DNA of 64,000 bases from Eledone cirrhosa (lineage: Eukaryota): contig OZ024745.1 in assembly GCA_964016885.1 (NCBI GenBank), positions 87,916,001 to 87,980,000 on the forward strand, read 5' to 3'. Position 1 is the first letter of the stretch. Each line of letters starts with the position of its first letter. The translations under genes were made by a program, and so were the position numbers. The notes beneath the pieces were generated by a model. The model worked only from the letters and a program-made list of their open reading frames with translations. It made no database searches and was not told the DNA's origin. Positions 33,919 to 48,830 of this stretch are shown here, piece by piece.

Positions 33919-33984
33919 TATTTCATTATACATATTTCAGGGATACCATATTAAAAATATGGCATGCCTTCTTCAGATAAAATA
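33919..33984 (-). ncRNA. Type I hammerhead ribozyme (family G)
   Basis: Reverse complement: uauuuuau CUGAAGA aggcaugccauauu-uuu-aauaugguaucccu GAAA uaugua UA augaaaua. Confidence 0.85.
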
Positions 33985-34703
33985 CAATATATAAGCAGTT
34001 TTATAAATAAATTTGACGTACCATAGAATTTTGAACAACTTCCATTTAAAAAAGTTGGTTTGGTAGTGAGATGTTTGTAAATATTTAGTGTTAAGTACAG
34101 TTAGAAAAGAAAGACGGAGAGAAGGAGTAAATGTATGTAAAGAAAAACAGAGAGAGATAGAGAGAGATATGGGAGAGAGAAAAATAGTGAGGAGGTGAAA
34201 AATGAGAGGCAGCTGAGGTAACAGATGAATAATAATAATTCAACATGCAAAATGAGAGATTTAGGGGGAGGGAGTACTGTAATTATTTATTTATTTAGTT
34301 AGTTATAGTGTTAAGGAGACGGAGAAAAATAAAAATAAAAAATAACTAAAGAGAAAACAGCGATACATAGATTACATCATGTATAGAGGGAGGAGAAGAA
34401 AGCTATATCTAGATAGAAAGATGACAGATTTACAACTTTACGTTATGTTCTATCAATTTGAATTATCAATTTATATGAATTGGGTATTATACTGTAGATA
34501 TCAATATTCATGAATGAGACATAGATATATAATGTGTGAAAAATAATGACCATATGTTTAGTTTAAAAATTCTTAGGTCGATATATTAAAAACCTGAGAT
34601 AAAACTTCAAAATACATAAGTATATATGTACTTTCCGGAAAAAGAAAGAAAGAGAAAAAGAGAAGGTCATCTCAAGTTCTAGTTGACACTATAGATATAC
34701 ACG

Positions 34704-35700
34704 TCAGCATACGTGATCAGCTCTGTAATTTCTCATTTCACATGAAAAAATTTTCCCTGGTTCGATTTTGGCTTGTATGAGGATGCTTTTTATGGATTTA
34801 GGTTGTCTTTTGCTCTTCATGATGTTATGTGTTTGGAGGATTTTGTTCATTCTTGGGTCTCTTTTAGTAAAGGAATGTTCTGGAGGATGCCTCATTGTTG
34901 AGGGGTTGTGTGTGGAGATGTATGGTAGAGTTTTCTGTTGCGGTTCATTCCTGGGTTTGAGGTGTCTGAGTTCCTGGATGTTGAGTTTTAGGGCACGTTG
35001 GAATCCATTGTTGATTAGGGATGGTGGGTAGTTTCTGCTGATAAGTGTGTTCTTTAATTCTTCTAGTCGTGTGTAGCATGTGTATTTATCTGAAACTAAT
35101 GTGCAGATCCTTCTGGCTAGGTTATAAGGAATTGCCATCTTGGTATGGCGAGGGTGGCACGAGTTAAATGGAAGGCATTGTTTGGAGTCTGTGGGTTTGT
35201 AGTATATGTCTGTTTCTATTTTGTTGTTTGTTTTCTTGATGAGGATGTCGAGGAAAGGGAGTTGTTGATGGCTGTATTCCATTGTAAGTTTGTGTTGAAT
35301 CCATTTAGAAGTGTTTTAAACTCAATCAGTCTTTCTATACTTTCATGCCAGAGGATGAAGCAATAGTCCATATATCTCTTCCAGTTTTTTCTATGTGTAG
35401 GTAGAAGTGGTTACCGTATTTGTCTAGAACTTTGCGGTAGAGAGTGGTTTCCAAATATACCCTGACAAGGTCGGCGTATGAGAGGGCTACTTTCGTGCCC
35501 ATGGCAGTCCCAGATTTCTGTCTGTAGTATTTGGCATCGAATTCGAAGAAGTTGTTTGCCAAGATGAATTTGAGGCCCGCCAACACAACTTCTTTTAGGG
35601 AAATTTTCAAGCCAGAATTGTATTGCCTCTATATCTAGGTTGTGTGGGATATTGGAATATAGATTGATGACATCAAAGGTTACTAGTCGGGTATGTTCAT
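34704..35700 (-). mobile_element. Penelope-like (Poseidon-type) RT fragment
   Basis: LVTFDVINLYSNIPH, NNFFEFDAKYYRQKSGTAMGTK, LPFLDILI, YYKPTDSKQCLPFNSCHPRH. Confidence 0.85.
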
Positions 35701-36394
35701 TATTATATATATTCCAACACCTGTGCTCCTACTCCACATTTTATAATTATATATATATATAAGTTAAAACAATGAAATAAAAATTCAAGTCATTAGAAAT
35801 ATCCTTCTCTGCTTTACGATCGTTTCTAGATGATAATAATACATCGTACGCATATTTCGTTATCGATCTATGTAGGGTTAGTTACAAAATATCGAATAAG
35901 GAATATATTTACCTACATCTATATCATCACCGTTGTCAAAAGCAATGAATATTTTATTCAAAATCAATAGTAAATTGAGTTCTATGACCTTATTTGGAGG
36001 TAAGTGAAGAACAAACCAATCAAATGGTTTTTTGCCCTATGATGTTAAGATGAAATATAACTCACTTTAGTTGCGGTCATGACCCTTTGAAAGGAATGGT
36101 TGAATGGTGTTAAAAATAGAATTACTATAAAGAACCTATGAAGAAAAAGGAATTGTTATATTGATAGTGGAATGTAGATGGTGGAGTGAAGTTTAAAAAA
36201 GGAATGTAAAAATTAAATGTTGAGTTGTGTTGTATGGAATTTTTAGGTGAATATAAATAAGTAAATATAAAATATACAGAAATAACTAGGATAAATATAG
36301 ATAGGTAAAATAGTGGTTATAACTAGGAAGGATAGTATATTAAAAGATGAAAATTATAATAAGATAATAAAATATAATAATATAATATAATTGT

Positions 36395-46902: not shown

Positions 46903-46920
46903 TATCTATCTATCTGTCTA

Positions 46921-48038
46921 ACACGTGGAAAATGCGGTGGTGAGTAAATGTTTTAATTTTATTGGAAATTGCATGAACTGAATCTAAATTCTTACTCCAT
47001 TTTGTAGATAAGCTGCCACCCTACACTTTGTAGGTGGTAGCAACCCCAAATAACAAGCCCATCAGGGCGAAAAAGGGAGAAATCTCCCAAAAAATGTTAC
47101 CGGAATTTTTGAAAATAGTTAAAATGGCGAAATATTTTGACCCTATCTTCACGAAAAACACATCAAAGAAATGTGGAGATGGGCTGTTAATCTCACCTTC
47201 CACAGTACTAGTATCAGGCTAAGGCTGCCTACCTGTGGCTATCACCACCAACAAAAACAGTAACAACAACAGCAACATCAAAACTATCAGCCAACAATTA
47301 GACAGAGGTGGAGGAGGGACGGTAATAGTGTCAAGCCAACAGGCAGCTCGCACCGCCTTTTTGAAACACGTCGATATGTTTAAAACACACCCTGACAACA
47401 ACACCAGCTTCACCAACACGAAAACTGGGAATGGATTAACCAAAACAACGCCATCAACAACAACAGGGACAACGAGAACAACAAGAACAACAACGACAAC
47501 AAAACCACAACCAACAACAACTCTGGTTTTCAGGACAGTCTCAAACAAAACCCCAAAACCGACTCAACTTTCACAAGGTGAAATTGAGTTGGTTTTAAAA
47601 GATGCCTTAAAAGACATTGCTTTCATTCAGAAAGGTAGACTCTACAGGAGTTTATCCATTCTGATGAAATACCAATTGACGGCACAGAAATATTCTGTGT
47701 CGCCAATTGTGTCACCGCTGTTCACCCTTTTTCCCCACTTACATGGGGAAAAGAACACAGAAAATAAAAATCCAAAGTATCACACCAAATATTGATGTTT
47801 GGTGGGTACTATGTGGATTTTTAAACCTCCCAAAAGAACGATAAAATCGGTAGGTAAATCCCCCGGCGACCTGTTCAGCGGAACTAGCCTGCAAATTCTG
47901 GTCCAAATTACACCAGAACGAATAGCTAGGATCCCAGAACGTGCTGCTAGATAGGCTTATATACATAAACATTTCGGTCGAGGGTAGGCGGCCCTCGTAT
48001 TACCACTGCTTAAGCAGGGGTCACCTGAGAGCTTCCTG
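46921..48038 (+). mobile_element. 5' part (ORF1) of third Tx1-like copy, 3'-truncated
   Basis: LVFRTVSNKTPKPTQLSQGEIELV and VEGRRPSYYHCLSRGHLRAS match ORF1 of the first copy. Confidence 0.85.
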
Positions 48039-48830
48039 ATGAAAGCGCACCATAATCTGACTTGGTGGCCCTTGAAATATGTATAATAAAATAAATATGG
48101 TTTTATAAATATAGTTTCTATTTGTTAATATATTGTATATTTACTCCAATAATTTGTTGAGTGCTTTATATCAGTTATAAAAATATTTTAGCTTGTTGTA
48201 TGCCAAAAAATTAAATATAACCTCTGCATATATATATATGTATATATATATATATATATATATATATATATATATATATATATATATATATATATATATA
48301 TATATATATATAGTGGAAAATTGAACGGGAACAAAACAGAGAGGCATTACAAACAAAGGTTTATTAATTTCACGCTCTTGAGAGTGGGGTGGTGGTGGAT
48401 ATATATATATATATATATATATATATATATATATATATATATATATAGTGAAAAATTGAACGGGAACAAAACAGAGAGGAATTACAAACAAAGGTTTATT
48501 AATGTCACGCTCTTGAGAGTGGGGTGGTGGTGGATATATATATATATATATATATATATATATATATATATATATATATATATATATATATATATATATA
48601 TATGCAGAGGTTATTTAATTTGTTGGGATACAACAAGCTAAAATATTTTTATAACTGATATAAAGTACTCAACAAATTATTGGAGTAAATAAACAATATA
48701 TTAACAAATAGAAACTATATTTATAAAACCATATTTATTTTATTATACATATTTCAAGAGCCACCAAGGCAGATTATGGTGCGCTTTCATCAGATAAAAT
48801 ACAATACAGATTAGTTTTATAAATAAATAT
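48036..48830. repeat. Inverted-repeat structure (about 195-bp arms) of HHR family G around TA-interrupted tandem fragments
   Basis: 48036-48230 is rc of 48600-48793; internal direct repeats at 48311-48400 and 48447-48535. Confidence 0.85.
48736..48801 (-). ncRNA. Type I hammerhead ribozyme (family G variant)
   Basis: Reverse complement: uauuuuau CUGAUGA aagcgcacca-uaaucugccu-ugguggcucuu GAAA uaugua UA auaaaaua. Confidence 0.85.

Follow-up and report, generated by a model that had tools for sequence, protein, structure and literature searches.

The window analysed here, a stretch of 64,000 nucleotides of the Eledone cirrhosa genome (assembly GCA_964016885.1, contig OZ024745.1, positions 87,916,001 to 87,980,000), contains two hammerhead ribozyme motifs, at positions 33919 and 48736, that share flanks, stem I, and stem III and differ in stem II. 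An initial annotation of the sequence proposed that such motifs keep stem I and the core and exchange the whole of stem II. The locus thus raises the question of whether stem II is a unit that moves between elements or a part of the ribozyme that diverges with the element that carries it. The window motifs are assigned to type I hammerheads, predicted to be self-cleaving, near the 3′ ends of Penelope-like elements (PLEs) that belong to three sister subfamilies (A, B, and C). The explanation that best accounts for the evidence as a whole, to which we give a probability of about 0.8, is that they represent type I hammerheads within the 3′ terminal repeats of sister PLEs of the Hydra clade, and that their stem II has diverged vertically.

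Each copy has the same order of parts: the 5′ strand of stem I, the core CUGANGA, a stem II of 31 or 36 nt, GAAA, a 2-bp stem III with a 4-nt loop, an AUA triplet, and the 3′ strand of stem I. The four hammerheads at 33919, 48736, 14565, and 16998 lie where they had been annotated (Table 1), and a further copy of subfamily B at 48036 is 96.6% identical to that at 48736/48793. As proposed, the copies at 33919 and 48736 have in common an 8-bp proximal stem I, the stem III octamer AUAUGUAU, and flanks whose identity is 85% over the 45 nt upstream and 91% over the 45 nt downstream, and the stem III of both A copies is AUGCGCAU. The same stem I had also been attributed to the A copies; this holds for the proximal 8 bp, whereas beyond them the A flanks are 61–69% identical to those of B and C. 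The copy at 14565 has G in place of the core A9, and six of the eight stem I pairs are intact in that at 16998. The inverted A copy at 16959–17192 is 92% identical to positions 14523–14673. A distal extension of stem I, in which ATTTATAAAAC pairs with GTTTTATAAAT, is predicted in subfamilies C and G (for example, at window positions 33895–34005), and subfamilies A and E have different distal stem I pairings; the proximal 8 bp alone are common to all. An Rfam search of the window gave no match at the gathering score, and a search of positions 33700–34200 with E-values up to 10 gave five weak matches, none of which is a hammerhead. Unconstrained folding did not produce the full hammerhead.

In the 3.0-Gb genome, the stem I and core pattern has 54,861 matches, with some copies counted twice, compared to two for the reversed control. 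A second pattern has 58,332 and 2,802 matches, 61,134 in total, compared to none in the control, and the motifs are therefore not chance occurrences. We analysed a sample of 100 distinct copies, nearly all of which come from the first 14 Mb of one contig (C1) and which includes four window copies and three from other loci. The copy at 48036 is outside the sample, because the upstream strand demanded by the pattern is missing there. For sampling, the core, a section of stem I, and the presence of a pyrimidine before GAAA were set by the pattern, which left the pairing of stem II free; the core letters are part of the search patterns and hence are not counted as evidence. According to their stem II, the copies were divided into subfamilies that we label A (27), B (22), C (13), D (14), E (14), F (5), and G (3), with two unassigned.

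The base of stem II and the origin of its variants

The base of stem II is common to all seven subfamilies and in register. Its first seven positions form three base pairs, a C·Y mismatch, and three further base pairs. Counted from both ends, positions 1, 2, 3, 5, 6, and 7 are paired in 93, 96, 95, 89, 96, and 89 of the 100 copies, respectively. Position 4 is paired in two copies and is C·C in 66 and C·U in 30. Genome-wide, it is occupied by C in 95.4% of the matches, and the listed exceptions, many of them C to T, are spread across subfamilies. When the majority pair of each subfamily is considered, the six positions are paired in 7/7 subfamilies and position 4 in 0/7 (permutation product 5.6e-5). 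The first pair is A-U in 65 copies, G-U in 27, and G-C in one, given that the pattern demanded a pyrimidine before GAAA. All four bases occur at core position 7.

The proposal that structure is kept while sequence changes was borne out by a MAFFT alignment in which 54 of the sampled copies represent all subfamilies. Two-sided changes occur at five of the six basal pairs and amount to 72 cells of the alignment, compared to 29 ± 7 after shuffling (0/500 as high) and 5–28 in slid controls. The pairing of stem II is retained in other copies: 93.5% of the cells of its base are paired, compared to 97.9% for stem I and 99.1% for stem III. The position 4 pair (19–48) is unpaired in 53 of the 54 copies.

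That the whole of stem II differs between 33919 and 48736 was not borne out. In a comparison of the two, 18 of the 32 columns align (56%; 4/300 shuffles score as high), and the first seven positions are shared in register. Real genomic copies link the C stem to the B stem, with the largest step being six edits, compared to 14 for the direct transition. Subfamilies A, C, and D show strong pairing past position 7, and B, E, F, and G show weak pairing there. The hairpins had been described as well-paired, which fits subfamilies C (median folding energy −11.6 kcal/mol, z −5.2) and A (z −4.1) but B only weakly (median −6.0, z −1.6, with z below −2 in 9 of 22 copies). Stem II has very probably diverged vertically and stepwise within each subfamily, by compensatory substitution together with lengthening and shortening of its tip. 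If stem II is held by pairing and the unpaired C alone, its letters would drift faster than the flanks, and it would therefore look replaced.

Genome-wide pattern searches for mixed copies found no B-type 5′ flank with a C stem and no C flank with a B stem, compared to 2,317 and 2,352 copies for the matched flank and stem controls. No stem end of the B, C, D, or G type was found genome-wide with an A-type stem III, compared to 12,823 control matches of an A-type stem end with any 4-nt loop; in the first 100 of these, the loop is GCGC or a one-letter variant of it. A tree of 97 of the 100 copies was built from the flanks and stem III, with stem II excluded. The stem II type changes 11 times on this tree, where the minimum is 7 and the shuffled mean is 60.6 (0/200 as low). 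Subfamilies A and G are single clades, and the B variants that bridge to C are sisters of the C clade, with starred support.

Several observations weigh against vertical divergence as the full account or limit the tests behind it. Two pair-counting measures on the 54-copy alignment are no higher than in shuffles (63/500 and 96/500). On the flank tree, none of the subfamilies B, C, D, E, and F forms a single clade, with 4, 3, and 6 changes for B, C, and D, respectively, and 53 of the 94 branches are unresolved. The pattern searches detect only copies that fit the chosen flank variants, and the shuffle tests overstate significance, the subfamilies being kin. Lastly, the distal arm of A aligns with that of C no better than by chance (188/300 shuffles as high) and weakly with that of B (13/300), and the stepwise path to A and to E requires steps of 10–11 edits; an old replacement of the stem II tip therefore retains some probability.

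In a modular exchange, stem II would be a cassette swapped between elements via recombination or template switching, which could account for the identity of stem II in the window copies being well under that of their flanks and for the scatter of B, C, D, and F on the tree. The complete lack of mixed copies in all of the genome-wide mix searches, compared to thousands of matched ones, the stepwise B–C intermediates, and the agreement of open reading frame (ORF) type with stem II type in all hammerhead-bearing loci described below make such an exchange highly improbable; moreover, the two D rows that lie within the C clade are on long branches, and their upstream flanks are broken. The exchange put forward in the initial annotation is thereby not upheld and, at least as recent exchange among A, B, and C, appears largely refuted by these searches. 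It is less far-fetched, but still unlikely, that the base of stem II was inherited and its distal hairpin rewritten in single events at the root of A, C, or E, by fold-back synthesis copying one arm or by a small inverted duplication. The near-perfect distal inverted repeats of A and C, the large loops of B and E, the misalignment of the A arm with C, and the jumps to A and E speak for this. However, the reverse transcriptase (RT) of A is 48–58% identical to those of B and C, leaving enough time for ordinary substitution, the gaps in the path may stem from sampling (80 distinct stems), and rewriting is not needed to derive C from B.

Coding elements of the Hydra clade

The copies at 33919 and 48736 had been described as non-coding and linked to a coding lineage through the PLE at 14565–16997. 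Membership in a coding PLE lineage stands, as both types have their own Hydra ORFs; the PLE at 14565–16997 belongs to a related sister subfamily (RT 51–56% identical) and is not their parent. We identify both copies, from the matches described below, as 5′-truncated ends of their own coding subfamilies. The untranslated region (UTR) of the element at 33919 is 68–82% identical to the 3′ UTR of ORF-bearing C copies. The copy at 48736 keeps just ~50 nt upstream of the core, and its tie to a coding element therefore rests on the hammerhead type.

At many independent loci, the B and C types run via a 3′ UTR of 1.0–1.6 kb into their own Hydra ORFs. Among the 20 best loci for a C endonuclease query, 19 have a C-type hammerhead (18 typed and one with two changes) 1.15–1.57 kb downstream of the endonuclease region, and one has none. 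The 20 best loci for a B endonuclease query contain a B hammerhead in 14 cases and none in six, and an overlapping set of B loci with shorter flanks gave 12 and eight, respectively. The ORF type matches the stem II type in 33/33 hammerhead-bearing loci out of 40 examined. Open frames reach 808 residues in subfamily A (locus L107) and 671 (L142) and 581 (L158) residues in subfamily C. RT identity is 72–74% between B and C, 55–58% between A and B, and 48–51% between A and C, and the flank identities given above follow the same order; on these figures, the RTs of B and C diverge in step with the hammerhead flanks.

The A element of the window has its 3′ end near 14523. Its RT is 77% identical to the 808-residue A frame, and its best database relative is a 636-residue unnamed protein (38%). 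A Pfam search with five window ORFs gave no family. No ORF could be tied to subfamily D or F. An ORF upstream of the subfamily E copy E_L105-3594 was rejected as the ORF of this subfamily, since it is part of an adjacent C-type copy, and the tie of the RT fragment at locus L111 to subfamily E is uncertain.

The domain order of the window element is RT followed by a C-terminal GIY-YIG endonuclease. The RT motif DKG is changed to DKT (SDKTNNLY in the window ORF, L107, and L142). The N-terminal RWK region reads RWI in A (L107) and RWR in C (L152) and is lost in the window copy. The endonuclease of L158 has CNCRNKSNC (CxCX5C), CNLC, and CRH and lacks CCHH, as read by eye against section 11 of Craig et al. 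2021 (PMC8557442); in the window copy, the linker is CNC...C with a stop. The 3′ ends adjoin (TA)n in most of the 97 copies listed, indicating insertion into this repeat. Because DKT, CxCX5C, a C-terminal endonuclease without CCHH, and (TA)n targets match section 11 of PMC8557442, we assign the elements, by motifs, domain order, and targets, to the Hydra clade, the published proteins of which share these motifs. The clade as described there also resembles the present elements in a putative RW motif, the late CxxC and CxH motifs, an inverted 5′-truncated copy, a tail, a type I hammerhead near the 3′ end, and the common occurrence of U before GAAA. A Naiad PLE, an assignment first suggested by RT motifs, was rejected, because the endonuclease is C-terminal to the RT (Naiads have an N-terminal GIY-YIG) and the RT motif is DKT rather than DKA. 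A genome search with query P0001 found a different, apparently intact Hydra family without an A-, B-, or C-type hammerhead.

Table 1. Hammerheads and associated element parts in the window.
Feature	Position	Strand	Details
Subfamily C hammerhead	33919..33984	−	stem I 5′ strand 33984–33977; core 33976–33970; stem II 33969–33939, C·C mismatch 33966/33942; GAAA 33938–33935; stem III to 33928; cleavage predicted after A 33927
Subfamily B hammerhead	48736..48801	−	core 48793–48787; stem II 48786–48756; GAAA 48755–48752
Second subfamily B copy	48036..48228	+	starts at first core base; without stem I 5′ strand; tail present
Subfamily A hammerhead, 3′ end of coding element	14565..14635	−	core CUGAUGG; 36-nt stem II
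Subfamily A inverted 5′-truncated copy	16959..17192	+	hammerhead 16998–17068 and tail; adjoins 5′ end of A element
5′-truncated subfamily C element	33878..34753 (approximate)	−	~780 nt of 3′ UTR, hammerhead, short 3′ end against (TA)n
5′-truncated subfamily B element	48605..48845 (approximate)	−	hammerhead with ~50 nt upstream of its core and a long, tailed 3′ end; flanked on each side by (TA)n
Subfamily A reverse transcriptase	15817..16929	−	370-residue open stretch; Hydra-type; DKT motif; 5′-truncated
Broken C-terminal GIY-YIG endonuclease region of A element	15264..15575 (approximate)	−	CxCX5C linker

Predicted dimers, 3′ ends, and the unpaired C

The stem III octamer is fully self-complementary in 88 of the 100 copies, and its main versions are AUAUGUAU (37), AUAUAUAU (25), and AUGCGCAU (22). 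Closure of stem III in the monomer costs 2.9–3.5 kcal/mol, and formation of a strand-swapped double hammerhead gains 5.8 kcal/mol in B and C, 13.5 kcal/mol in A, and 3.4 kcal/mol when A pairs with B or C, in nearest-neighbour energies that leave out the non-canonical pairs of the core. Dimeric action on a tandem precursor RNA has been proposed for PLE hammerheads in which stem III is short and palindromic (PMC4209133, PMC6765202). Since the monomer stem III is predicted to be unstable and the octamer is self-complementary, the hammerheads studied here probably cleave as dimers in a tandem precursor. A 2-bp stem III would be unstable alone, and the octamers of two hammerheads in a tandem or partial-tandem transcript would pair. 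The paired dimer would cut after AUA, trimming the precursor RNA, and reverse transcription would then begin ~50 nt downstream of the cut; we propose that this start would give rise to the short end, the 85–95-nt tail, and the inverted copy. For the most part, genomic copies that stand singly or on opposite strands, as the window ones do, would be inert.

Copies end at two discrete sites past the predicted cut, at ~40–60 nt and 125–150 nt, and the longer 3′ form opens with a small hairpin. Tails of 85–95 nt are present in the window at 17110–17192, 48605–48690, and 48140–48228 and start with an ACTC...GAGT hairpin just past the short 3′ end. This hairpin is matched in 29 of 97 copies, from all seven subfamilies, and may mark a priming site. 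A PLE tail has been linked to internal priming in the account given in PMC11167929, and the two-ended copies found here are like that tail. The layout of the A element with its inverted, 5′-truncated, and tailed copy is as described for PLEs in PMC8557442.

The unpaired C at position 4 is located approximately where loop 2 begins after a canonical stem II of 4 bp. From this location, we tentatively consider it a functional contact, for instance a site at which stems I and II dock or bend; stem I/stem II contacts are reported to increase the activity of natural hammerheads (PMC6155905). Against a function, the fixed C may be inherited rather than selected, as the seven subfamilies are kin. A bolder model, which we regard as rather improbable, is that the C is a tertiary docking site replacing loop 2. 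This would constitute a new dimer-dependent architecture, in which stem II is free beyond its seven basal positions and the stem III versions favour partners of their own kind.

It is also conceivable, if unlikely, that the motifs barely or no longer cleave and that their fold is maintained as a signal through which the RT or endonuclease binds or is positioned, with the C as a protein contact or a brake. Stem I is weak and A-U rich, the first stem II pair is R-U instead of G-C in 92 of the 100 copies, and the minimum-energy fold differs from the hammerhead fold, which lies above it, in all four window copies folded. PLE hammerheads are described as poor and slow cleavers in vitro, even as dimers (PMC4209133), which also counts against cleavage of the copies studied here, and Naiads are reported to spread without canonical hammerheads (PMC8557442). 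Conversely, the free variation of core position 7 and the self-complementarity of stem III in three versions fit selection for an active dimer, and U before GAAA also occurs in most of the published Hydra hammerheads in File S2 of PMC8557442. Much more remote is the idea that 33919 and 48736 represent an independent non-autonomous family, like a retrozyme or a short interspersed nuclear element, that borrows PLE proteins. No ORF is attached to either copy, and an upstream ORF is missing from most of the 100 sampled copies; 21 have a same-strand Hydra match within the sequence analysed, several of them from neighbours. Nevertheless, the B and C types continue through their 3′ UTRs into their own Hydra ORFs, their 5′ ends vary in position, and these subfamilies showed no short monomers in head-to-tail arrangement. 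For subfamily C, we consider the non-autonomous origin refuted by the linkage of hammerhead to ORF. Hammerheads of coding Hydra elements, predicted to cleave and with a vertically diverged stem II, remain our preferred explanation.

Neighbouring elements and relation to published hammerheads

Other hammerhead-like motifs occur in the window and beyond. A separate Hydra family (L073:988–1082; loci L071–L100) has open frames of up to 784–789 residues, several of them in ~3.53-kb tandem arrays, and its 30/30 loci contain a hammerhead-like core UUGAGAA (U3-A8 for C3-G8), in which stem II is long and stem III complete. The window region 36950–38584 includes a decayed Hydra endonuclease remnant (~37200–37920, reverse strand) and an inverted pair of terminal fragments (38434–38584) related to the hammerhead region of this family. 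Another PLE is present in direct and inverted pieces at 22162–33533, with an RT at 25247–27916, a GIY-YIG domain extending to 28780, and a short-stem hammerhead at 28986 (forward strand) and 24056 (reverse strand). A hammerhead-like motif on the reverse strand at 54225–54300 differs in its stem I, and its stem II is long and rich in G+C. The region 34704–35728 (reverse strand), adjoining the truncated C copy, is presumably a Penelope/Poseidon-like RT remnant, judging by its motifs. This remnant was rejected as part of the 33919 copy, since the C-type UTR match stops near 34753 and the ORF found in true C elements is of the Hydra type. We take positions 39341–48038 to be two related elements without long terminal repeats (non-LTR), L1/Tx1-like in their motifs, and the frames at 56621–61330 (reverse strand) to be Helitron-like Rep/helicase. 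The second non-LTR element is broken at 48036 by the B copy. Positions 18903–22103 form a tandem array in which the period is ~547 bp and which shows internal inverted homology.

The 26 Hydra rows of File S2 of PMC8557442 list an uninterrupted stem II of 3–7 bp and a stem III of 3–4 bp. In contrast, stem II of the present hammerheads is 26–36 nt long and contains a fixed C·Y mismatch, and stem III has 2 bp with a 4-nt loop; a long stem II with a fixed mismatch is absent from these 26 rows. The Hydra-1_Obim hammerhead given there differs in sequence from the A, B, and C motifs. The 3′ UTRs of 1.0–1.6 kb and the element lengths exceeding 3 kb also differ from the Hydra elements of that study.

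The metazoan PLE hammerheads described by Cervera and de la Peña (2014, PMC4209133) are likewise of type I, located in pseudo-long terminal repeats (pLTRs), and found mostly as single truncated copies or close opposite-strand pairs. They also have a long helix II and a small palindromic helix III, for which a dimer was proposed, and form several sequence families per genome with compensatory changes. They have a conserved G10.1-C11.1 pair with an extra base before it, whereas the first pair here is A-U or G-U with no extra base. The Drosophila virilis hammerhead is described there as having a bulge within helix II; the irregularity in the Eledone motifs is a 1×1 C·Y mismatch at position 4. Non-LTR retrozymes (bioRxiv 10.64898/2026.07.22.740005) have a type I hammerhead related to those of PLE pLTRs and are described as short non-coding tandem repeats, in contrast to the truncated ends of coding elements found here. 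A literature search found no paper on a C-C mismatch in hammerhead stem II; variants of this sort may already be contained in the study of Lunse, Weinberg and Breaker 2017. A search for cephalopod Hydra Penelope hammerheads returned Craig et al. (PMC8557442) alone, and other literature searches listed no paper on this family, judging by title or the start of the abstract.

Hammerheads at the termini of PLEs, the occurrence of sequence-variable families in a single genome, and the dimer model have all been published, and, given the several compensating families per genome reported in PMC4209133, conserved structure with variable sequence is known as well. The seven subfamilies, with ~61,000 copies of a very abundant hammerhead design missed by Rfam, provide a natural mutational series that shows what may change in a PLE hammerhead and singles out one unpaired C and the self-complementary stem III as fixed. 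The series makes it possible to ask at the bench whether PLE hammerheads act as dimers and whether an internal mismatch may stand in for the loop 2 contact.

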